64,000 nt of DNA, taken from Podarcis vaucheri (lineage: Eukaryota). The stretch is from the NCBI GenBank assembly GCA_965113315.1, contig OZ220366.1; one strand, given 5' to 3'. The notes under the pieces are model-generated. The model saw only the letters and a list, made by a program, of their open reading frames with translations. It did no database searches and was not told the origin of the DNA. Made by a program: the position numbers and the translations under genes. This document shows positions 4,069-63,506 of this stretch, piece after piece (the stretch's first letter is position 1; the number at the start of each line of letters is the position of its first letter).

Positions 4069-5196
4069 ATCGATGATCCTGAAAATGGCCTGGAAGGAAT
4101 GATGCCGGAAGTTGAGGTCACAGGTTCAGTGGACAACTTGGGGTCTAAGCAGGCCCTCACAGCAGACTACGTGGACTCTGGCTATGAGAGGGGGCAACTA
4201 AACCCTAGTTCTCTTCATAAGGGCGACCACGAGATAGCCACCTACACGCTGACCAATGCGGTGCCATTGACCCCGCCTCTCCATGAGATATGGCACTGGG
4301 AGATTGAGAGCCTGGTAGGCCAGGCCTTGGCTCCACACTGTGACAATGGAAAGGGACTCTATCTTGTTTCCGGGGCAATTCCTTCCACCCTGAAAGTGAA
4401 GGACAAAGTCTCTGTCCCTGAGTCTCTCTGGCTGGCCGCCTGCTGCGATGATGGCTCCAAGACCTGGTCTTTGGGATTTATTAAGCAGGCAACTGCTGAG
4501 AATCGCCTGGAAGACCTCACCGTGGAAGCCCTTGAGAAGAAGCTCCACGCAGGAGCTCAACTGTTTAAGAACCACTGCGGCCAAGACAGACACGACCCCA
4601 AGAAACTGGAGGAGGTCCACCATGCTGTGAAACACGTCCGAGCTAAGGAACCGGTGCCACAAGCGAAGAAGTCCACCACAGGCCAGCACGCCGGCACACA
4701 GCCAAAGGAGGAGAGCGGCTTTCTGAAGAAGTTATTTTATTTCATCGTTACACCTATCTTCAAACTGCTGAAATTGGTCGTCTACCTGGTTGTCCATATT
4801 GTGAAATACACCTTCTCTCTTCTGTGGCGCCTCATCCAGACAATCGTCGGGGGGGTGTTCACCTTCATCAAAGGAATTGCCACAGCGCTGCTGAATGTCT
4901 TTGTTGACGTGGCTCGCGTGGGCGTCAACATCCTGAACGGCATTGCCAAAAACATCTACAGCGTCCTGATGGTTACATACAAGATTCTCTGCATCCCTGT
5001 GAGCGTGATACTAGACATCGTGTCCTTCCCTTTCTACGTCCTGGGTGCCATCCCTACAGTCCTCCGAGATATCGCCTCAGGTATTGGTGGATTATTCTTA
5101 CTGGCAATTGATGCCACGACAAGCATTGTGACGGGCCTAAATTACATCGTTTCGCATTTAGCCAAAAGGTTCCTTCCTAAGATTTACGATGCCTGA
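4069..5196 (+). CDS. ENDOD1: Endonuclease domain-containing 1 protein, last (large) coding exon
   Basis: Pyrimidine-rich acceptor (ttgttcgcattttag, AG at 4067-4068) opens in frame with ORF 4099-5196, giving IDDPENGLEGMMPEVE... Motifs LGSKQALTADYVDSGYERGQL, ATYTLTNAVP, LYLVSGAIPS and KDKVSVPESLWLAACC plus a long hydrophobic C-terminal region match vertebrate ENDOD1 exon 2 as recalled. Neighbouring SESN3 fits known synteny. Confidence 0.95.
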   Translation: MDDPENGLEGMMPEVEVTGSVDNLGSKQALTADYVDSGYERGQLNPSSLHKGDHEIATYTLTNAVPLTPPLHEIWHWEIESLVGQALAPHCDNGKGLYLVSGAIPSTLKVKDKVSVPESLWLAACCDDGSKTWSLGFIKQATAENRLEDLTVEALEKKLHAGAQLFKNHCGQDRHDPKKLEEVHHAVKHVRAKEPVPQAKKSTTGQHAGTQPKEESGFLKKLFYFIVTPIFKLLKLVVYLVVHIVKYTFSLLWRLIQTIVGGVFTFIKGIATALLNVFVDVARVGVNILNGIAKNIYSVLMVTYKILCIPVSVILDIVSFPFYVLGAIPTVLRDIASGIGGLFLLAIDATTSIVTGLNYIVSHLAKRFLPKIYDA

Positions 5197-5961: not shown

Positions 5962-6940
5962 ATAATAATAATAATAATAATAAGAGTTATACCCTGCCCA
6001 TCTGGCTGGGTTTCCCTGGCCACTCTAGGCGGCTTCCAACAAAATATTAAAAATACAATAAAACGTCAAACATTAAAAACTTCCCTAAACAGGGATACCT
6101 TCAGATGTCTTCTAAAAGTCAGATAGTTGTTTATTTCCATGACATCTGATGGGAGGGCATTCCACAGGGTGGGCACCACTACTGAGAAGGCCCTCTGCCT
6201 GCTTCCCTGTAACCTCACTTCTTGCAGTGAGGGAACCACCAGAAAGGCCCTCAGCGTTGACCTCAGTGTCTGGGCTGAATGATGGGGGTGGAGACGCTCC
6301 TTCAGGTATACCGGGCTGAGGCCGTTTAGGGCTTTAAAGGTCAGCAGCAGTACTTTGAATTGTGCTCGGAAACGTACTGGGAGCCAATGCAGATCTCTCA
6401 GAACCGGCGTTATGTGGTCCTGGTGGCCACTCCCAGTCACCAGTCTAGCTGCCGCATTCTGGATTACAGTGGTGCCCCGCAAGACGAATGCCTCGCAAGA
6501 CGAAAAACTCGCTAGACGAAAGGGTTTTTCGGTTTTGCGTTGCTTCGCTAGACGAATTTCCCTATGGGCTTGCTTCGCAAGACAAAAACGTCTTGCGCTT
6601 TTTTTTAAAGCCGCTTGAAGAGGCACAGTTGTGGCGGACCGTGCTTCGCAAGACGAAAAACATCGCAAGACGAAAAGACTCGCGGAACGAATTATTTTCG
6701 TCTTGCGAGGCACCACTGTAGTTGCAGTTTCTGGGTCACCTTCAAAGGTAGCCCCACGTAGAGCACATTGCAGTAGTCCAAGCAGGAGATAACTAGAGCA
6801 TGCACCACTCTGGTGAGATAGTCCACAGACAGGTAGGATGTCAGCCTGTGTACCAGATGGAGCTGGTAGACAGCTGCCCTGGACACAGAACTGACCCCTG
6901 CACCTCCATGGATAGCTGAGAGTCCAAAATGACTCACATA
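5962..6940 (-). mobile_element. L2-clade LINE 3' fragment (ORF2 C-terminus plus microsatellite tail), interrupted by a MITE
   Basis: Translates as ...ISCLDYCNVLYVGLP...QKLQL|IQNAAARLVTG...DHITPVLRDLHWLPVRFRAQFKVLLLTFKAL, typical of L2; (TTA)n tail at 5962-5983. Confidence 0.88.
6467..6718. mobile_element. Tc1/mariner (pogo/Tigger-like) MITE nested in the L2
   Basis: 22-bp TIRs cagtggtgccccgcaagacgaa / ttcgtcttgcgaggcaccactg (1 mismatch), TA on both sides. Confidence 0.92.
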
Positions 6941-8716
6941 AAGCAATTCAGCTGGCAGGTCATCTGCTGCTGTCCCTTGAAGGTAGAAGAATGAGTTCCT
7001 ACAGGGAGGAATTCAATCTAGCGCTGATGGAGCAATCTCCCCTCCCCTTGTGTGCTGTTTTGGGGTTCTTCCAACCCCCTCAAGCCAATTTCAGGGGGGA
7101 AGGGAGGAATCCCTGATGCACTAGTGGAAGCCCTTGTGTGAGGTTCTGCTAGTGTCGTTGGTTAGTTGAACCTGGTCAATACTGGTGTAGAATATCTGTT
7201 TAAGAAACAGAGTAATGGACTGGGAAGTTCCCGGTTGAATTTCATCTCTGCGATGAACTAAACTAGGCAACCTCAAGCCCCTCCATCCACAATATGGAAA
7301 ATAATTATGCTGACAGGAAGATGTGTAAGGTAAAGGCATACTGTATGTGATGCAACTTGAATCTTGCAAGCGCTGTGCACACATTCACACAATCCATTTA
7401 AGGCACTACAATACCTCTTGAAACAGTAATGGGTTGCCTCAAAGGATTCTGGGAGCAGTTTGTTAAGGGTGCCAAGAATTGTTCAGCCTTCCTTCCTCCC
7501 CGAGCTACAATTATCAATCCCTCTTCATGGAAAACTGGGAATTGTAGCTCCGGGCGGGGAACTACCGGTCTCCTAAGAACTTTCAGCACGTTTAACTACT
7601 CCTCCCAGAATTCTCTGAGGCAAGTCACAACTATTTAAATGGTGTGAATGTGGCCGTAGTGCAGTATCTATTCTATGCTCTGTTCTTTTCAGAGTGAGGC
7701 TTACTGGCTTTTGCCTCTAAGGCAGGTCTGGGTTTCAAACCTGTGCTTAGATTAACTTCTGAATTGGATTGTTGTAACACATTGGACATGGCTCTGCCCT
7801 AGAAGAGTTTAGGCCGTTTTAGTGAAAAATGAGGCAGCTAGACTTCTTATCTGTGGCTAGATGTAGGGAGCACCTTACAAGGTTTCTTGTTTTCGTTTTA
7901 AGAACTAGCCATGAGACTCCTGGTCGATTTTAATCTTTAAAAAGCCTTTAAAAGGTTTGAGACAAGTTTAGCTTAAGGACCACTTCCCCCTCCATGAAGC
8001 TTCTCAGCTCAGGAATGCTTTCCCCATGGCGACTGGCAGGGCACCAACCCATATATCTTCCGTGTTCCTGGAGAGGATCTTTCTATTTGCCCAGCCTTTT
8101 GAAGTCACAGAGTTTTAATCTGGTTCTCTGCTTTGATCTCTGCTGCTGTTTTACATTGGATTTTTGGTTTCATGTATTTATTGCTAACCTTTATTTCTGA
8201 TTTTGTTTGCCACTCTCAAGACGTTTCACATGGAGAGTGGTATAGAAACACCACCTAAGTGAATAAATAGTATTTTCACTACCTCTATAGAGTGAGGCTT
8301 CTCACAGCAATCTTTATTATTTAATTTATCCCTTGCCACATACTACGGTGTCGGCAGAAGAAAGGTGGCAGTTCTGTGCATAAGAACCTGTAGCCCAAAA
8401 GCAACTTCCATCACCCATGCCCATTGGCCACACTGGCTGGAGCACCTGGGAGCAGGAGTTCAACTGGAAAGCCACAGTTTCCCCATCTCAGTCTTAAAAG
8501 GTGGCATGGCTGACAACCACAAATAGGACCCATCTTTCCCTAATTTGTCCACAAAAAGAGTTAGCCACTAGGGAAACTTCTTCTAGTTTGCAAAATAAGT
8601 GGACCCAATTGGGGGTCAGGGAGAGGAAGAGAAAATCCTGTGAGTGCTTTTATGAACTGTCAGATTCTGCATCAGGTCATGCCTCCATGTTTAAGCTGCT
8701 AAATTGCAGACAAATA

Positions 8717-28975: not shown

Positions 28976-30625
28976 CTATAAACACATCACATCCTTCAGG
29001 ATCTAATACAGATCATTCCCTCTTCGGCCCCCAGTTCCATACTCAACATTTTTGGGGAAACGCTCAGGTCTGTGCACTGCATGCACTAACAGATTTAAAA
29101 TTGCGCCAAGCAAGTTTTATGCACTGCCCAAATCATGCAAACGTTCCTGGGGCTCATTAAAGAATCCTACCAATCTGATCCAGCCACTCCTCTGGCTAAC
29201 GGAATTTCAGCAGGCATTGCCCACAGATGTTTAAGTGTATTGTAAAAGCAGTTAAGAGAAAGGAACTTCCTTTCTGTTTTAAAATGAAAGCAGAGAACCT
29301 CCGGAAGCTTGTTTTTGGGTCTAGAATCACTTTCTGTGTTTGCAATGCAGCGGCAGAACCCACAAGCTCTGACCATACCCAGCCCGTTCCTTTAGTTCTT
29401 TTGTGCCAGGCTCTTCTTTGCAAATTCCAATCCAATATGCTGCTGTGCATTTGCCAGTTCAGCCCCTAAGAGTCCGCACACTGTCACTTTTGCCTCCAAT
29501 CTACCTGTATCACTTTACTCTAAGCCAGTCAATGATATCTGATCCCCCCTTTTTAGTATCCCCCAAAGAAGTTGTGACACATCATTTGAGAAAGCCACTT
29601 TTCATTTCATAAGTAAGTCACTATTACATCATGAAAATCATTCGTTACCTCTGCCTACTGACGTTTCATAAACATAATTGCATGATTTATATGGCCAGCA
29701 GAATCCTTGGTAAGGAATGCGAAAGCCATCTTAGAAAAGGCAATTTTTAGTCATCTGGAAGAACCCAAGAGCTCTTTGTAGCTCCTTCCTCTAGAAAGGT
29801 TTGCTGTTTAGGGCTATACAAAAGGGTCAGGCTCTGGTTGGAACAGGATGGAACTAGACTGTTGTCACTTGGAATAAAAACGGTAGCAGAGGAGAATTTG
29901 GTCATCCTAAGGATGAGGGTGAAAATGTTTATGATCATCCAGATGTTGGGAGGAGAAGAACTGAGCAACAGAGAAGAAAGGAGAAACATGATCCTCCCAT
30001 GTTCTGGCATGGGTCTGCCCCTCCCAGCAACCCACTGATTCCTCCTGACCTCACATGGCTATTAAGTGCTTTCAGATGCAACCTCAGACACTGCCTGGGC
30101 AACAGAATAAGGCTCTTTTCAAGACTGCCTGTCATTTTGCTGGTTCCAATGAAGACACCAAGGTATGGGGAAATGGGGCTGGGAGGGAGAAGCGAAGTAG
30201 TGTTCAATCAGTTTATTATGGCCATAGACCAGCAGTAACAAAGTGGTGTTCTGGTGAGAGTTTGCACACTTAAGATTTGCGAAAGAGAAATATATTTCAT
30301 GTTAGTGCTGCGTTTGCAGTCCGGTGTTGCTTCCCCTCCCCTGAAACGGACATCTCGATTCTGTCCTGCAGAGCTAGCTTGCCTCTCAACTGACCTCTCT
30401 TTTGGATCTGCCCACAAAACCCCACCCAACTCGGATCCCAATTCTTCTGGGGTTTGCGTTTCAGCTCCCTATTCCCCAGCCCTGACAAACACAGGAAAAA
30501 GTTGATCTCTCAACCACAAGCAGGAAACACACCTCCTCTCCACCCTGTAAGCCCCTTCCAGAAAAAGAAGAAAAAGTGGGACAAGCAAAATGGGAATTAA
30601 AGAAAAGAAATCTGGCAAGACTAAC

Positions 30626-30862
30626 CCCAAAGTTGTTACTTATGAGGGATGCGTTTTCGATGTTGTTGTCATTGGCAAGGTCGCAGACACAGAAATTGTT
30701 AACTGATATGAGCCTGTAGCCATTCGAGGTATCGAGATCTCTCTCTGGATTGATGCCACTACCAAAGACAAAGCTTGCCAAGGCATGGTAGTGTGCCAAG
30801 AGGACCACAGCATGCACCAGTTCCGGAAGAGACCAATTATTTTCCCCTGTCTTGACAAGTTT
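30626..30862 (-). CDS. SESN3: Sestrin-3 coding exon 5 ([40 protein letters not shown]...NNFG)
   Basis: 237 nt, catttcag acceptor and GTTAGT donor, within ORF 30461-31036. Confidence 0.96.
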
Positions 30863-31039
30863 CTGAAATGAATGAAAAAAGGAAGACATATGCATATATG
30901 TTAGATGCAGACACAGGAAGGAGACGGAATATTCCAGTGGCAGGAAGGCAACAGTTATCTGGTCTCTTCCAAGTTTCCATTTTGAGAGGGGTAAGTTGGG
31001 AGCATTCAGTATGAAACGATGCCAGAAGGCTGCCAAGTC

Positions 31040-31594
31040 ACAAGGGATATAAAATGTACAGCATGCTACCGTTTAAGAGAAAATTATATGAAAATGATAT
31101 ATCGATGGCATCTAACACCAAGTAAACTTGCAAAAATGTATAAAACCAAATCAAATGAGTGTTGGAAATGTAAAGAGAAAGGTTATTTTTATCGTATGTG
31201 GTGGTCTTGTAGGAAGGTTAAGGGTTACTGGGAAATGTTATACAATGAAATGAAAAGGATGTCAAAAATAACGTTTGTAAAAAAAACCCAGAAGCCTTTC
31301 TCTTGGGAATTATAGGGACAGAACTACCTAAATTGTATAGAAATTTATTCATGTATGCGACTACAGCGGTAATGTTACTTGCCCCAAACTGGAAAGAAGA
31401 AGTCCCAGCGAAGGAAGAATGGATACAAAAACTTATGGAATACCCAGAAATGGCGAAACTTATCAGAAGAATAAGAAATAAAGATAACAAACTTTTTATA
31501 AAAGAATAGAGATGGCTTATGGAATATTTACATATATATTGTAAACAAATAGAAACACTGGCATGATTATTGTAATAACCTGCAGCTACATAAG

Positions 31595-56856: not shown

Positions 56857-57655
56857 TGTCAGAGCTGCTACCAGGTCCCAGCTCACATAGGACCACGCCA
56901 CACAGCGTCCACTTTAAAAGAGTCTTTATTGAGTTACAGGTTTCATTTCCGAACTGCAGCGTGCAGCTCTACACCTTCTGCTCTAGGTCGGCGAAGACCC
57001 GTCTGAGTCCCCGCCTCTTGCACACCAGCTTAATACCCTAGCCTTGCTCCACCTCCTTCGCCTCTCCCTACGTCTCTGGGTCCTTCTGCCCCCCTGGGCC
57101 TCCTCCCTTCTACTCTCCTCTGACGCTGACCCCCCTGATCCTTCTGCCTCCTTGCGGCGGGCTTTAGGACCTGGCTCACTCTCCGGGCTGCTTACTGCTC
57201 CAGCTTCCGCTGCATTTGAACTTGGCGCGCGCGCCCAACTCTCTACTTTCCTCTTAACCGTTGCCTCGCTCTCTGAGGAGGGCGTGACCACCCCTGACTC
57301 GTGCCCTCCCTCCTGCTGACAGCCTCCGGAACCCGATGCCTGGCTACCTTCCTCCCTGCTGCTCTCAGTCTTGAGCGTGGGTCCCGACTTCCAGCTGCTG
57401 CCGCCCTCAGTTATGAGCGTGGGTCCCGACTTCCAGCTGCTGCTCTCTGAATCTCCTCTGTTCCCTTCCTCCTGGGGTGTCCCCCCGGATCCCCCCCTTG
57501 CTCTGCTCACTGGGGCTCCCTTTTGGGAGTCCTCTGACTCACTGCTTAGGCTTGGAGATCTCGGGTCGTCATCATCACTCATTCTCCCTTCGGCTTCCTC
57601 CCCCTCGCTCTCTGTTTCCACCCTTCTCTGCGTCTCTGCTTCTGAACCCCTGACA
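56857..57655 (-). repeat. 3' LTR (799 bp)
   Basis: Preceded on the minus strand by a polypurine tract; AATAAA at 56930-56925. Confidence 0.97.
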
Positions 57656-60600
57656 TCCATCCCCCCCTCGAAGCCCCCCCTTCCCCCCTCCCCGCTGTCA
57701 GGTGTGGGTGCTGGGCGCTCCATCATCATGGGAGGGAATGCTGGATACAGGTCGCTCCCCGTGGGTGGCCGCCAACTGAAGACCTCCGAGTCTTCCCCCT
57801 CGCGGTCGTCGACGTGGACTTGTTGCTCTTCCATCTCTGTACCGCCGTGCTCGAACCCGAGGTCCTCCCCGAACACGTCCATGTCAGTCTCTGCGTCGGT
57901 CGCTCGACCTGGCATCTCCAGCCACTTCCTGCGCCATCGCTCCTCTGGTCGATCGTCCCACCAATACGAGTTGCCTGATGCCGAACCTGCCGGTGAACCT
58001 TCTGGGGAACGGGTGCTCCGTGCGGGTTCCCCTTCTGAGTCGAATCCATGGAACGTGCTGGAAGAAAGTGTGGGTGTGAACAACCAGTCGTCGAAGAAGC
58101 TCGCCGGCATGGGTTTGTGTGGGAAGAGGGCATGAAACTCGTCCTTGAGCAGGGGTTCCTCCAAAGCGTAGTCTGGTACCCAGCTATTGGCGCTGGCCCG
58201 GGTGCCCTCTCTGGCTAAGAGGTATTCGACTCCCTCTTCCCCCCATCTGGAGTCCAAAATCTCCGTGACCTCGTTGATGTGGTCCTGGTGCTTCACCTCC
58301 CGCGTCTCCGTCCGTTCCCGGAGCGGACTTGGCGCCGTCCCTGGCTCCTGGAACCTGTGAGGTGCCTTGTAGGGAGTGAGCACCGACCTGTGGAACACCG
58401 GATGCATTCTGGAACCCTCCGGCAGCGCCAGTCGGAAGGCTACCGGGTTGATCTGCGCTTCGACTTGGTACGGACCGATCTGCTTGTGCCCCAACTTCTT
58501 CTTGGCAAGCGACCTGGTCGGCACTGCGTGGGCTGCCAACCAGACCCAGTCTCCCACTTGGATCACTTCGCCAACCCGCCTGTGCTTGTCAGCTTGCACC
58601 TTGTAGGCGTGCTTAGCTAGCTCCAGCTGCCGTCTGAGTTGATCGTGGACCGCCTGCAGCTCTGACGCGAACGCGTCCGCCGTCTGTGGTTCTCCTTCCC
58701 CCACTCTCTCCAGTCCCGGGAAGGTTCTGGGATTCCTCCCATTGTTGGCAAAGAACGGCGTCACTCCTGTGGACACGTGCTTCGTGTTGTTGTAAGCGAA
58801 CTCGGCTAGCGGCAGGTAATCCACCCACGTCGCAGGCTGTTGATTGGCATAGCATCTCAGGTACTGCTGCATGATGGCATTGACCCTCTCTGCTTGCCCG
58901 TTGGTCTGCGGGTGTCTTGCTGATGCCAGATTGACCTTGACATGTAGAAAACCCATCAGCTTCTGCCAGAAAGACGAGATGAACTGGCGTCCGCGGTCGG
59001 ACAGGATAGACCGTGGCAGGCCATGCACTTTGAACACGTGATCTATGAACAGTTTGGCGGTTTGTTCCGCCGTGGCCACCTTCGCACACGGAATGAAATG
59101 TGCCATCTTGGTGAACAAGTCCACCACCACTAGCACAGCTGTCTTGCCTCTCGAGCTGGGTAAATCCGTCACAAAGTCCAGGGCCACCCTCTCCCACGGT
59201 TCAAACGGTGTTTGCAGCGGTTCTAACAGTCCCGCCGGTGGTCTGTGTACCGGCTTGGCCCTCTGGCAGGTGTCGCACCTCGCGACGTAGTCCGCGACCT
59301 CTCCTCTCAGCCTGGGCCACCAGAAGTCTCTCGCGACTAATTCCATCGTTTTCTCTGTGCCAAAGTGACCGGCCGTGGGTGCGTCGTGCAACTGTTGCAG
59401 TACCTTGGCGCGAAGGTCGTCTCCTGGTACATAGACAGCCCCTTTGCGTAGGAGCAAGCCGTCCCGCACCTGGAACTCGTCCGTGGTAGCCGTGCCTCTG
59501 AGCAGTTCCGCCATCTTGTCTTGCGCGAATGAGTCGTCCCGCAATGCACGTCGCACCGCATCCAGGTCTACTGTAGCTGAGGCACACGCCCACGCCGTCG
59601 GTGCGAAGATGTGCATGGCCGCCGCTGGCGTCACCTCTTCTAGGTATTGCGGTTTTCGGGACAGTGCATCCGCCATGATGTTGGTGTCGCCTGGGACGTA
59701 CTCTATTCGGAAATTGAAGTCAGCAAAGAACTCCGCCCAACGTATCTGCCTCTGGTTCAGGAACTGAGCCGTGCGCCAGTGCTCCAGATTCTTGTGGTCC
59801 GTGCAGACCTGCACCGTGTGCTTGGCGCCGATTAGGAAGTGCCTCCACGCCTTGAAAGCTGCATGAATGGCCAGCAACTCCCTGTCCCAGATGGTGTAGT
59901 TCTGCTCCGACTTGCTGAGCTTTCTGGAGTAGAACGCTCCCGGCCGCCACACCCCCTGCGGGTCTCGCTGCAGCAGGACGGCTCCCACGGCTCTGTCTGA
60001 CGCGTCTGTCTCTACCCTCAACGGTTTACTGGGGTCGATATGCAGCAGTTGCTTCTCCGATGCGAAGAGATGCTTGAGCGCTTGAAAGGACTGTTCCGCC
60101 TGCTCCGTCCAGATGAATTTCTTTTTTTTGGAGCTGAGCGTGTCCGTAATTGCTGCCGTCTGCATCGCGAACCCCTTGATAAACTTGCGATAGAAGTTGG
60201 CGAAGCCGACAAACCGCTGGACCTCCTTCCGGTTGCGCGGGCTTTTCCAATCCAATACCGCACGAACCTTGGTGCTGTCCATGGCTATCCCCTTGTCCGA
60301 CAACTTGTATCCCAGGAAATCCACCTCCGTCGTGTCGAACTGGCACTTCTCCAGCTTGGTGTACAGTCTATGTTGTTGCAACCTGCTGAGCACCTCCCTC
60401 ACGTCTCGGTCGTGAGCTTGCTGCGAGTCAGAGAAAATCAGGATGTCATCCAGGAAGCAGACGCATGTCTTGTAGAGGAGGCCCTCCAACACGTGATGCT
60501 TAAAAGCTTGAAAACAGTGAGAGCCATTTTGTAATCCAAAGGGCATAACTCTGTATTCGTAGGTGCCCAGCGGTGTGAACATGGCCGTCTTCCACTCATC

Positions 60601-61581
60601 GCCCTCCCGCATGCGGATGAGATTGTACGCCCCTCGCAGGTCCAACTTGGTGAACACGCGTCCCTTGCGCACCGTCGCGAGGAGGTCGTCAATCCTGGGC
60701 ATGGGGTAATCAGACGGTTTGGTCATCTGGTTCAAAAGGCGGTAGTCCACAACTAGTCTTTTTTGGGGCGTGTCTTTCTTTTTCACGAAGAAAACGGGAC
60801 TGCCCCCCACTGCCTTGGACTCTCTGATGAAGCCACGCTCCAGATTATGCTCGATGAACTGTTTGAGTTCCTGCATTTCATCTTCAGACATGGAGTATAG
60901 CCGCCCCTTCGGCAGCGTCGCCCCCGGTAGGAGGTCAATCTTGCAGTCATATGGCCGGTGAGGGGGTAGCTTGTCCGCCTCCTTCTCGCAGAAGACCTCC
61001 AAAAAGCTCGCGTATTTGTGGGGGACCGCTTGCAACGTTCCCAACTGCAGTTGTGATTCCTCCTCCTCTCCCTCCCGTCGGGGCAGGATGCAGTGTTCTG
61101 CGCAATAAGAGGAGCCGAAGATCAGTTGTCTCTGGTACCAAGCCAGTGTCGGACTGTGCCTGTCCAGCCAACTCATGCCCAACACAATGGGCGTGTCCGA
61201 CAGTTGGGTGACATTAAAACTGATGACTTCCCTGTGGTTGCCAAGGCGCATCACCATCGGTGGCGTCTGCTTCACCACCTGCCCCCCTAGCAACTCTCTG
61301 CCATCCACTGTGACGACTTGCAGGGGCAGAGTGGCAGGCAATAGCTGTATAGCGTGCTGCTCCACAAAGCTCTGCGCTATAAAGTCTGCGTTGCTTCCAG
61401 AATCCACAGAAAGCGGCACTTCGATAGTGACGCCGTCGGGTAGCTGGAGAGATGCTGTGAGCTGCACTACTGGTTTGGGTGGGAGGGGATCCGTGGGTTG
61501 CAAGATTGCTGGGGACTGCTTCACAGATGCGTCTGGCTGGGCCCCAGTGCCTCCGTCTCCAGCCAGACATCGTCGTTTCCC
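56983..61581 (-). CDS. pol: Pol (PR-RT-RNase H-integrase-chromodomain-long acidic tail), expressed as a ~1870-aa Gag-Pol by -1 frameshift
   Basis: Uninterrupted ORF 56983-61698. Protease VDSGS; RT KLDLRGAY, MPFGL, FLDD; RNase H TDASD, ELLAI, TDHKNL, ADALSR; integrase HHCC, LDF, SDRG, GQAER; GPY motif; chromodomain-like EVTEILDSRW...NSWVP. Confidence 0.95.
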   Translation of the reverse strand, partial: GKRRCLAGDGGTGAQPDASVKQSPAILQPTDPLPPKPVVQLTASLQLPDGVTIEVPLSVDSGSNADFIAQSFVEQHAIQLLPATLPLQVVTVDGRELLGGQVVKQTPPMVMRLGNHREVISFNVTQLSDTPIVLGMSWLDRHSPTLAWYQRQLIFGSSYCAEHCILPRREGEEEESQLQLGTLQAVPHKYASFLEVFCEKEADKLPPHRPYDCKIDLLPGATLPKGRLYSMSEDEMQELKQFIEHNLERGFIRESKAVGGSPVFFVKKKDTPQKRLVVDYRLLNQMTKPSDYPMPRIDDLLATVRKGRVFTKLDLRGAYNLIRMREGDEWKTAMFTPLGTYEYRVMPFGLQNGSHCFQAFKHHVLEGLLYKTCVCFLDDILIFSDSQQAHDRDVREVLSRLQQHRLYTKLEKCQFDTTEVDFLGYKLSDKGIAMDSTKVRAVLDWKSPRNRKEVQRFVGFANFYRKFIKGFAMQTAAITDTLSSKKKKFIWTEQAEQSFQALKHLFASEKQLLHIDPSKPLRVETDASDRAVGAVLLQRDPQGVWRPGAFYSRKLSKSEQNYTIWDRELLAIHAAFKAWRHFLIGAKHTVQVCTDHKNLEHWRTAQFLNQRQIRWAEFFADFNFRIEYVPGDTNIMADALSRKPQYLEEVTPAAAMHIFAPTAWACASATVDLDAVRRALRDDSFAQDKMAELLRGTATTDEFQVRDGLLLRKGAVYVPGDDLRAKVLQQLHDAPTAGHFGTEKTMELVARDFWWPRLRGEVADYVARCDTCQRAKPVHRPPAGLLEPLQTPFEPWERVALDFVTDLPSSRGKTAVLVVVDLFTKMAHFIPCAKVATAEQTAKLFIDHVFKVHGLPRSILSDRGRQFISSFWQKLMGFLHVKVNLASARHPQTNGQAERVNAIMQQYLRCYANQQPATWVDYLPLAEFAYNNTKHVSTGVTPFFANNGRNPRTFPGLERVGEGEPQTADAFASELQAVHDQLRRQLELAKHAYKVQADKHRRVGEVIQVGDWVWLAAHAVPTRSLAKKKLGHKQIGPYQVEAQINPVAFRLALPEGSRMHPVFHRSVLTPYKAPHRFQEPGTAPSPLRERTETREVKHQDHINEVTEILDSRWGEEGVEYLLAREGTRASANSWVPDYALEEPLLKDEFHALFPHKPMPASFFDDWLFTPTLSSSTFHGFDSEGEPARSTRSPEGSPAGSASGNSYWWDDRPEERWRRKWLEMPGRATDAETDMDVFGEDLGFEHGGTEMEEQQVHVDDREGEDSEVFSWRPPTGSDLYPAFPPMMMERPAPTPDSGEGGRGGFEGGMDVRGSEAETQRRVETESEGEEAEGRMSDDDDPRSPSLSSESEDSQKGAPVSRARGGSGGTPQEEGNRGDSESSSWKSGPTLITEGGSSWKSGPTLKTESSREEGSQASGSGGCQQEGGHESGVVTPSSESEATVKRKVESWARAPSSNAAEAGAVSSPESEPGPKARRKEAEGSGGSASEESRREEAQGGRRTQRRRERRRRWSKARVLSWCARGGDSDGSSPT
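57656..57691 (-). promoter_or_regulatory. Polypurine tract (...GAGGGGGGGATGGA|TGTCA)
   Basis: Purine run immediately 5' of the 3' LTR on the element strand. Confidence 0.85.
61509..61581 (-). promoter_or_regulatory. -1 programmed ribosomal frameshift signal: GGGAAAC + 6-nt spacer + H-type pseudoknot
   Basis: Slippery heptamer at 61581-61575 links the gag frame (CAG GGA AAC) to the pol frame (GGG AAA CGA). Stem 1 GTCTGGCTGG/CCAGCCAGAC (10 bp), stem 2 CTGGGG/CCCCAG (6 bp). Confidence 0.88.
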
Positions 61582-62597
61582 TGCTGTGGTTCTCCTTGCT
61601 GCGTTGCTGCAGTCACCATTGCTGAGGCTGCAGTGTGCTTGTGGAGCCTCCGGGGACACTCCTTCGCCAAATGGCCTGGATCCTCGCAGATGTAACACTT
61701 CCTGTTCCCTCTAGGAGGCTTCGCTTTCCCTGCTGCCGGTGCTAGGGCTCTGGCTGCTGACTGAGCCCTTGCACCTCCAACCTCCATCGGTTCCCCTCCC
61801 CCTCCTGGCGGAGGTGTGGATTGCGCACGCGCTGCTTCCCTCGGAACGAAAGAGAAACTTCTCGCTGCTTCGCGCCCTCCACGTCCTTCATCTCTGCACC
61901 ATGGACGTTCTTCCAGCCTCACCCCCACAGTCAGCGCCCTTTGGACCACCTCCTGCGTGCTTCGGGGCCTCTCCCCCCTTGCAATTTCATCCTTAACCGC
62001 TGAACTTAGACCCTCCCAGAAGAGGTCTCTGACAGGGGGCGAATCCCGATCCCATTCTAAAGCACTGACCAGCGCAAAAAATCGGGCGTGATACTGCCGG
62101 ACGCTCGCCCTCCCTTGTTTTAGTCCATGAATCTCCCGTCTGGCAAGATCCACATCAATAGTAGACAAAAAACACGCATCCATCGCTTTGATAAAGGCAT
62201 CTGCATTCTGAAGCGCCGGATCTTTATCCCTCCACAAATTGCGCAGCCAGGCTTTGGCATCCCCATGCAAATGGGACAATATGAACCCCACCTTCTCTTC
62301 CTCATCTCTAAAGTCTTTTGCCAGCAGTTGCAGTGCGCACATTACGTCTGCTCTAAAATTAGGGTACTGTTGCAAAGTCCCATCGAAGTGAGCCACAAGC
62401 CCTCCTGCTCTCCGTGCCAATCCCACGCCCTCCGGTCTGGGTCCCGGTTGCCCTTGCTTAACAAGCATTTCAAACCTGGCGTGTAGGTCTCTGTAGGCGG
62501 CTGTAGTCTCCTCCTCCCGTTTCTTGGAAGCCAATACCTCTGAGGACAACTGGGTCACTGCCTCTTGCAGCGCGGAGATCCTCTGTTCTTCCGTCAT
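61521..62597 (-). CDS. gag: Gag (358 aa from the first ATG): N-terminal coiled coil, capsid-like region, EPMEVG motif, CCHC zinc knuckle
   Basis: ORF 61521-62630; first ATG (MTEEQ) at 62597 with A at -3. Motifs LKQGRASVRQYHARF, FWEGLSSAVKDEI and CYICEDPGHLAKEC (CX2CX4HX4C). Confidence 0.93.
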   Translation of the reverse strand: MTEEQRISALQEAVTQLSSEVLASKKREEETTAAYRDLHARFEMLVKQGQPGPRPEGVGLARRAGGLVAHFDGTLQQYPNFRADVMCALQLLAKDFRDEEEKVGFILSHLHGDAKAWLRNLWRDKDPALQNADAFIKAMDACFLSTIDVDLARREIHGLKQGRASVRQYHARFFALVSALEWDRDSPPVRDLFWEGLSSAVKDEIARGERPRSTQEVVQRALTVGVRLEERPWCRDEGRGGREAARSFSFVPREAARAQSTPPPGGGGEPMEVGGARAQSAARALAPAAGKAKPPRGNRKCYICEDPGHLAKECPRRLHKHTAASAMVTAATQQGEPQQGNDDVWLETEALGPSQTHL

Positions 62598-62694
62598 CTT
62601 GCTAACCTTTGTGAGCTCGCTTACAGACACCCCTCTTCCTCCCCTAGCGGCTTCTGCTCCCGCTGCGAGGTTTCAGGTTTCTGAAGCTTTGATG

Positions 62695-62705
62695 AGACGG
62701 GTCTT
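62695..62705 (-). promoter_or_regulatory. Primer-binding site, self-priming type (AAGACCCGTCT)
   Basis: Lies 2 nt after the 5' LTR, lacks the TGG of a tRNA PBS, and is the perfect complement of AGACGGGTCTT at 62855-62845 inside the LTR. Confidence 0.85.
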
Positions 62706-62707
62706 AC

Positions 62708-63506
62708 TGTCAGAGCTGCTACCAGGTCCCAGCTCACATAGGACCACGCCACACAGCGTCCACTTTAAAAGAGTCTTTATTGAGTTACAGGTTTCATTTC
62801 CGAACTGCAGCGTGCAGCTCTACACCTTCTGCTCTAGGTCGGCGAAGACCCGTCTGAGTCCCCGCCTCTTGCACACCAGCTTAATACCCTAGCCTTGCTC
62901 CACCTCCTTCGCCTCTCCCTACGTCTCTGGGTCCTTCTGCCCCCCTGGGCCTCCTCCCTTCTACTCTCCTCTGACGCTGACCCCCCTGATCCTTCTGCCT
63001 CCTTGCGGCGGGCTTTAGGACCTGGCTCACTCTCCGGGCTGCTTACTGCTCCAGCTTCCGCTGCATTTGAACTTGGCGCGCGCGCCCAACTCTCTACTTT
63101 CCTCTTAACCGTTGCCTCGCTCTCTGAGGAGGGCGTGACCACCCCTGACTCGTGCCCTCCCTCCTGCTGACAGCCTCCGGAACCCGATGCCTGGCTACCT
63201 TCCTCCCTGCTGCTCTCAGTCTTGAGCGTGGGTCCCGACTTCCAGCTGCTGCCGCCCTCAGTTATGAGCGTGGGTCCCGACTTCCAGCTGCTGCTCTCTG
63301 AATCTCCTCTGTTCCCTTCCTCCTGGGGTGTCCCCCCGGATCCCCCCCTTGCTCTGCTCACTGGGGCTCCCTTTTGGGAGTCCTCTGACTCACTGCTTAG
63401 GCTTGGAGATCTCGGGTCGTCATCATCACTCATTCTCCCTTCGGCTTCCTCCCCCTCGCTCTCTGTTTCCACCCTTCTCTGCGTCTCTGCTTCTGAACCC
63501 CTGACA
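62708..63506 (-). repeat. 5' LTR (799 bp)
   Basis: Direct repeat of 56857-57655 at offset 5851; translations of overlapping ORFs are identical in both copies. Confidence 0.97.
62855..62886 (-). promoter_or_regulatory. LTR core promoter: TATTAA box (62886-62881) and predicted TSS at 62855
   Basis: TATA-like box starts 31 nt upstream of an Inr-like CTCAGA whose A begins the self-primer sequence. Confidence 0.65.

Follow-up and report, generated by a model that had tools for sequence, protein, structure and literature searches.

Pol reads through the whole U3 of a young Tf1/sushi-type retrotransposon of Podarcis vaucheri and encodes a tail with a candidate tethering motif

The element and its extended pol frame

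The window analysed here, the whole 64,000-nucleotide stretch of contig OZ220366.1 from Podarcis vaucheri (assembly GCA_965113315.1), carries on its minus strand a 6650-bp element (56857-63506) that its long terminal repeats (LTRs), target-site duplication and Pfam domains mark as a full-length Ty3/gypsy chromovirus-type LTR retrotransposon. Its LTRs, bounded by TGTCA/TGACA, are identical at 799 bp each, and a 5-bp target-site duplication flanks the element. Pfam matches place protease, reverse transcriptase (RT), RNase H and integrase, the last with an SH3/GPY-F region, in the order (PR-RT-RH-IN) of Tf1/sushi elements, and the C-terminal integrase chromodomain of that group is recognisable weakly in the window and clearly in a sister family that aligns with it. 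The element belongs among self-priming Tf1/sushi-type chromoviruses and is young, Podarcis proteins being its nearest named relatives. A -1 frameshift at the slippery heptamer and predicted hairpin listed in Table 1 would take ribosomes from gag into pol.

A single stop-free minus-strand frame spans 61710-56983 (1575 codons), and its tail, counted from 58110, comprises 375 codons, 152 ahead of the 3′ LTR and 223 within it, reading the polypurine tract (PPT) in frame, crossing the entire unique 3′ region (U3) of the LTR and stopping in the repeat region (R), with 52 nt between the TAG and the AATAAA of the window copy. A preliminary description of this DNA had proposed just such a frame, about 375 residues past the chromodomain through the PPT and U3, with some 150 codons ahead of the 799-bp LTR and some 223 inside it, a stop in R and about 53 nt to AATAAA, and the counts bear it out; the position in R follows from the self-primer, which places the putative RNA start 20 nt upstream of the stop. 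The chromodomain that it put at about 58120 is present, ending near 58130, but is degenerate: Pfam Chromo scored 17.1 bits in the window, under the cut-off of 25.1, where the sister family reached 42 and a family of this genome with an intact chromodomain 62.5.

The same description had cautioned that a purine-rich, T-poor strand has few stop codons by chance. The T content of the LTR part is indeed 10%, and the pre-LTR part by itself does not stand out (6.3% of shuffles stop-free), but dinucleotide shuffles, evaluated in a given frame, left the whole tail stop-free in 1 of 20,000 cases and the LTR part in 47 of 20,000, so that composition does not account for the open tail frame. A Pfam search of the tail matched no family and an ESM Atlas search returned no usable match, while an AlphaFold model of the chromodomain plus tail had a mean confidence (pLDDT) of 37 with the chromodomain itself unfolded, making it uninformative on disorder. 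An antisense open reading frame of 271 codons (57320-58135, plus strand) was considered as a separate gene and set aside as a shadow frame sharing the third positions of pol, with a weaker signal (dN/dS, the ratio of nonsynonymous to synonymous substitution rates, 0.52) and stops in some copies.

The tail also runs over the promoter. In all 28 copies with both parts readable, the primer-binding site keeps a 10-11-nt complement to the LTR, in six covarying versions. Tf1/sushi self-priming, as described in PMC4600332 and PMC6317226, uses the RNA's own 5′ end as primer, so that transcription would start at 57004 in 3′ LTR numbering. The most distant subfamily lacks the TATA-like hexamer upstream of this putative start. 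Other conserved blocks of the tail vary synonymously, unlike the 15-nt block 57228-57214, which is therefore likely to be a promoter element overlapping the coding frame; we take it to be CHR/E2F-like (CHR, cell cycle genes homology region). The invariant 15-mer, TATA-like box, initiator, self-primer and attachment (att) end thus use the same bases as the pol code.

Table 1 Features of the element and of the window, in positions of the window
Feature	Position	Strand	Basis or remark
5′ LTR, promoter copy; putative start site 62855	62708-63506	-	
Primer-binding site for self-priming, complement of LTR nt 652-662	62695-62705	-	Two bases behind the 5′ LTR
gag open reading frame, 358 aa: capsid and CCHC knuckle	61521-62597	-	Open reading frame list, Pfam
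Slippery heptamer, then predicted hairpin (-25 kcal/mol)	61575-61581	-	
pol core: protease, RT, RNase H, integrase zinc finger and core, SH3-like domain	58369-61422	-	Pfam
Degenerate chromodomain	58132-58272	-	Pfam Chromo 17.1 bits, cut-off 25.1
TND-interacting-like motif: aromatic helix, 8-residue Ser/Thr linker, FxGF	58042-58098	-	dN/dS 0.11
Acidic pre-LTR tail, including translated purine tract/PPT (~57693-57656)	57656-58041	-	Charge profile
3′ LTR; U3 = 57655-57005, entirely in pol frame	56857-57655	-	
Strongest-constrained U3-encoded block, Ser/acidic	57511-57561	-	dN/dS 0.08; 2-4 codons per invariant residue
42-nt in-frame tandem duplication, only in part of the family (799- vs 757-bp LTRs)	57361-57444	-	Approximate boundaries
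15-nt block, invariant as DNA in 16/16 divergent copies	57214-57228	-	One codon per residue, all subfamilies
Basic cluster, then hydrophobic [W/L]-[S/G]-x3-[V/L]-L-x-W motif, overlapping TATTAA; also in sister family	57022-57087	-	dN/dS 0.30
TATTAA, 31 nt upstream of putative start	57030-57035	-	
First 11 nt of R, self-primer copy, read as codons in 3′ LTR	56994-57004	-	
pol stop codon TAG, +20 in R	56983-56985	-	
AATAAA polyadenylation signal	56925-56930	-	
Sestrin exon	30461-31072	-	Host exon
Endonuclease_NS-domain exon (non-specific endonuclease-domain gene)	4069-5196	+	Pfam; host exon

U3 is under amino-acid-level purifying selection

Codon alignments were built from rows free of stops or shifts in the segment and of near-duplicates, which kept 16 of 31 rows for U3, 14 of 25 for the pre-LTR tail and 17 of 29 for the integrase. 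In the pol frame of U3 (16 copies, 233 columns), dN/dS was 0.38 (p = 9e-24), as against 1.87 and 1.17 for the remaining sense frames and 1.54, 0.52 and 1.74 in the antisense frames, the second of these being the frame that shares third positions with pol. An alignment of 13 copies made blind to frame gave 0.40, compared with 1.07 ± 0.15 in 60 column shuffles, of which the lowest was 0.75. U3 thus stands at 0.38-0.40 in the pol frame, with off-frame and shuffled controls, the shadow frame apart, at ≥1. The pre-LTR tail as a whole gave 0.34, and the segment from the integrase core to the chromodomain end 0.12. Third positions account for 168 of 328 changes, or for 119 of 244 once CpG columns are left out, and none of 20,000 permutations gave as high a share. 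Indels, although few, were of 42 and 3 nt in the coding part of the alignment and of 1 and 5 nt behind the stop. U3 is under amino-acid-level purifying selection and the tail frame is a trait of the family, and the tail is almost certainly selected as a protein. With the common stop, these ratios and a 15-nt block devoid of synonymous variation, the dual promoter and coding constraint on U3 that had been suggested for this copy is supported by the kinds of check proposed along with it. The most constrained U3-encoded block, 57511-57561, is possibly a phosphorylation cluster.

A PPT/LTR junction pattern matched 2,839 times in this genome, and the G-run of the PPT was one base shorter than the in-frame length at 291 of these junctions and one base longer at 23. 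Among the 30 best-matching copies, a sample biased to likeness, none had a tail stop or indel; these copies are almost identical and were chosen for likeness, making them unfit as a test of constraint. Twenty copies were picked by position from rows with an in-frame PPT, and 19 kept U3 open to the homologous stop. In the diverged set (20 of 26 matches examined, 15 with a readable junction), 11 of 15 kept U3 open over 209-223 codons and 4 were broken within it, while several further diverged copies were frame-shifted in purine runs ahead of the LTR. The stop lay 54-55 nt ahead of AATAAA in all open copies, sister subfamilies stop at the homologous place, and the Podarcis muralis protein P0001 carries the whole tail, with 75% identity over chromodomain plus tail and the same final residue. 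A family consensus stopping right after the chromodomain, which would have spoken against the proposal, is therefore not what the subfamilies and the P. muralis protein show, since they share the distal stop; frameshifting indels are likewise uncommon inside U3, yet about 11% of junctions are frame-breaking in the PPT G-run.

The length variants of this G-run (57669-57656) are strongly one-sided and occur in more than one subfamily, with replication slippage and assembly error both possible. In copies L034 and L047, U3 matches the window near-exactly and the upstream and unique 5′ (U5) parts differ, identifying recombinant subfamilies. Window-family junctions are unevenly spread on contig C1, where 32 of the first 100 listed fall in the first 10 Mb and 20 in 60-112 Mb.

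A profile search over 1.8 billion representatives returned 33 proteins, a handful of them with the tail, and one of these led to the sister family, family F, in the same genome (L085-L100, P0010, P0011), whose integrase is 53-55% identical to that of the window family. Its pol reads 109-110 codons into a 436-bp LTR, three-quarters of which is coding, and stops at +20 to +23, in an LTR lacking AATAAA; dN/dS in the LTR frame was 0.44 (L085 and L088 were left out of the read-through parse and L096 out of the dN/dS and post-stop permutation). The two tails do not align overall, sharing the terminal basic cluster with Leu-x-Trp and, after the chromodomain, a helix, linker and FxGF. In a tree of 20 integrases, which for wider relatives had only fish-type ones on long branches, a single clade (support 100/99) unites the window family, family F and protein P0011. 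Family G (L071-L078, ~115 motif matches), a more distant sushi-type family, is likewise self-priming and keeps its chromodomain cage intact; its pol enters the 3′ LTR for 109-117 codons and stops just before a TATA-like box. In this LTR frame dN/dS was 0.60, not significant (p = 0.09) in 8 close copies. Its LTR-encoded tail is acidic and Pro-rich and then reads RRSARL, the core of the HMGN nucleosome-binding consensus as given in PMC12871379. All three families enter the LTR in the same phase, with codons starting at LTR nt 2, which hints that read-through into the LTR is ancestral.

A candidate chromatin-tethering tail and rival explanations

The chromodomain that precedes the tail has lost its aromatic cage. 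By comparison with the intact-cage family, and leaning also on HP1 numbering as we take it to apply, none of the three cage positions is aromatic in the window family, one is kept in family F and all three in family G, so that the window family lacks the three cage aromatics that define a group I, methyl-lysine-binding chromodomain. Within about 10 residues of the chromodomain end, outside the LTR, starts an FxGF motif, the strongest clue to function, that had gone unremarked in the preliminary description. Its three Phe and the Gly are invariant in 20 of 20 aligned copies from two families. According to PMC9987994, motifs that interact with the TND (TFIIS N-terminal domain) consist of a helix, an acidic or CK2-phosphorylated Ser/Thr linker of 8-16 residues and FxGF, which is indispensable in every known LEDGF or HRP2 partner. 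The helix-FxGF spacing here is 8 residues, as in human JPO2 and POGZ, the linker is acidic in family F, and two acidic FxGF motifs occur in 13 of 14 family F copies (chance of two, 0.1%). The host domains of LEDGF and HRP2 are both encoded in this genome. A PDB search with the motif profile gave one chance match only, and a complex prediction pairing the 35-residue motif with a lacertid LEDGF domain scored 0.21 twice, against a mark of 0.34 and with alignments not used, and is counted neither way.

Taking these observations together, we favour, as the better-than-even reading of the sequence, a largely disordered, phosphorylatable integrase tail that acts through short motifs in chromatin tethering and nuclear entry. 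After gag-to-pol frameshifting, ribosomes would read the full-length RNA until 20 nt into the 3′ R, making the 375-codon extension a selected C-terminal tail of the integrase. Attached there, it would probably, though by no means surely, serve as an integration-targeting and nuclear-entry module supplementing the cage-less chromodomain. The helix, linker and FxGF would dock on the TFIIS N-terminal domain of LEDGF or HRP2 once the Ser/Thr linker is phosphorylated, tethering the integration complex to transcribed chromatin, with the terminal basic cluster supplying nuclear import or contact with nucleosomes or DNA. We name LEDGF/HRP2 as the partner tentatively, with somewhat less than even confidence.

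An open frame arising incidentally from a purine-rich, T-poor strand and the recent expansion of one master copy, with the apparent constraint coming from promoter elements or CpG decay, would fit the low T content of the LTR part, the near-identity of the 30 nearest copies, the block constrained as DNA and a mild third-phase excess seen at first in the post-stop control (p = 0.007 outside CpG columns). By permutation that excess falls short of significance (p = 0.10 and 0.27), and the sister family lacks it, while only 0.2% of LTR-part shuffles are stop-free, the frame-specific periodicity persists outside CpG columns, and frame and phase are kept across families 53-55% identical in integrase; the codon, periodicity, post-stop and frame-blind tests have already refuted this explanation, leaving it a negligible likelihood. 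It is very unlikely, too, that only the openness of the frame matters, with a stop near the poly(A) signal (~55 nt) shielding genomic RNA from decay triggered by a long 3′ untranslated region and the peptide incidental. In its favour, two distant families with a twofold difference in tail length both hold the stop at +20 to +23, and much of the tail is weakly constrained. Against it, dN/dS near 1 is predicted, when 0.38 was seen overall, with 0.08 in one block and 0.11 in another where synonymous change is free. These ratios refute openness as the sole cause; it may contribute to the position of the stop.

Harder to separate from a targeting tail is a selected tail with another task, namely an accessory factor released by the protease and functionally like nef, sag or bet, made within the polyprotein and acting as an antagonist of host defence or silencing, an LTR transactivator working through TND-containing elongation factors, or an RNA chaperone. 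All the selection evidence fits such a factor equally, TND-interacting motifs serve mainly transcription elongation complexes as presented in PMC9987994, and frequent tail-less copies suit a product acting in trans. However, the motif sits within ~10 residues of the chromodomain end, the position of chromovirus targeting domains, and its presence tracks cage loss, as both FxGF families belong to one clade with a damaged cage and the cage-keeping family G lacks FxGF in its tail. No splice joint for a separate tail message appeared in contigs of four sequencing runs (three presumed RNA, from diverged relatives), which cover the element piecemeal, are uninformative on start, strand and splicing and could not reliably show such a joint. 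We regard an accessory factor as rather unlikely.

Several observations weigh against the tethering tail that we prefer. The linker of the window family is Ser/Thr-rich rather than acidic and would depend on phosphorylation, and FxGF is short, occurring in 3% of shuffled tails and once more in the RT. About 11% of junctions carry a frame-breaking PPT length, among them that of copy L031, whose two LTRs are identical and whose pol is otherwise open, so that tail-less copies inserted often. Outside a few blocks the tail is weakly constrained (dN/dS 0.53-0.69), dN/dS is not below 1 in the first 32 U3 codons, the shadow antisense frame is low as well, and the subfamilies are mosaics, which makes the tree under the codon model approximate. 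Translation of the tail, its binding and its activity as a nuclear localisation signal are all deduced from sequence. In family F, 57 of the 90 matches listed lie on the repeat-rich contig C41 (41 Mb), a pile-up that gene-body tethering does not predict; older copies accumulating on a non-recombining chromosome could account for it, and C41 is possibly a non-recombining sex chromosome. This contig holds 51 of the 100 family G matches listed and none of the 40 best window-family matches, and age and targeting are confounded on it.

Known systems, significance and host locus

HIV nef and MMTV sag are proteins coded in the U3 of the 3′ LTR, under dual constraint, as separate open reading frames with spliced or separate messages. 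The tail described here differs in being in frame with pol with no intervening stop and no sign of a start of its own. The preliminary description had held that coding sequence overlapping an LTR is known mainly from such retroviral accessory genes, a view that the plant chromoviruses do not support. In group A elements of the CRM clade, the polyprotein runs into the 3′ LTR for every member covered by PMC3059260, where the LTR-encoded integrase end is a proposed targeting domain, and in the Reina families Bingo1-4 and 7 Pol extends into the 3′ LTR, as reported in PMC3605345. Group A elements and this element share a chromovirus polyprotein that runs into the 3′ LTR and gives the integrase an LTR-encoded end without a canonical chromodomain. 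As described, CRM elements are primed by tRNA-Met, have a single open reading frame and TGATG/CATCA ends, and carry a CR motif in place of the chromodomain, whereas this element has a self-primer, a frameshifted gag-pol, TGTCA/TGACA ends and a degenerate chromodomain kept upstream of the PPT, and its frame extends through the entire U3 and over both the TATA-like box and the start site. The likeness drawn here is one of layout, and by priming, reading-frame layout and ends the element is not a CRM member.

With the vertebrate V-clade of the Tf1/sushi group (Sushi-ichi, Amn-ichi/ni/san, as named in PMC6317226) it shares the order PR-RT-RH-IN-chromodomain, TG...CA LTRs, a 5-bp duplication, AATAAA near the LTR end and a self-priming site. 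The fish-type relatives P0025 and P0033 end at the chromodomain or a few tens of residues past it, whereas this clade has a tail of 200-375 residues and a damaged cage. As for the motif, it has in common with those of JPO2/CDCA7L, POGZ, MLL1 and IWS1 (PMC9987994) a hydrophobic helix ending in Phe, a linker of 8-9 residues, FxGF and an acidic flank, and JPO2 has tandem TND-interacting motifs, as in family F. The motif of the window family differs in sitting on a retrotransposon Pol and in a linker rich in Ser/Thr and not in Asp/Glu, and is a candidate by sequence. According to the same source, lentiviral integrases use the host domain that TND-interacting motifs bind. In the open-licence literature, the original Tf1/sushi descriptions and repeat-database entries falling outside that scope, we found no vertebrate account of such a tail, nor of FxGF on a retrotransposon integrase.

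The Pol-into-LTR layout is thus already known, and what is added is a selected tail in a vertebrate together with a targeting hypothesis. More broadly, and with greater reserve than for the partner itself, we speculate that this clade dropped the methyl-lysine (heterochromatin) reading and, by mimicking the TND-interacting motifs of the host, is carried by LEDGF/HRP2 to transcribed genes, and that in vertebrate Tf1/sushi elements at large U3 serves as an evolvable cassette for chromatin-binding motifs on integrase, of which RRSARL in family G would be an instance. Lentiviral integrases contact this host domain through their folded core. If the motif binds, a retrotransposon would be using the lentiviral host domain, and the lentiviral tethering factor would have been reached through short-motif mimicry. 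Insertion-site choice of vertebrate Ty3/gypsy elements is largely untested, and this young high-copy family offers a named candidate partner, a short motif and thousands of recent insertions, while the cage-keeping family G of this genome can serve as control. It is also a measured case in which the whole U3, a core promoter and a self-primer double as protein code, which bears on LTR models that treat U3 as non-coding.

The element sits in sense orientation within a sestrin-gene intron, and the likely first exon of that gene is in a CpG island ~16 kb beyond the window. Elsewhere in the window, the second half of an open reading frame at 6066-6947 (minus strand) presumably resembles the C-terminal end of a reverse transcriptase of a long interspersed element (LINE).

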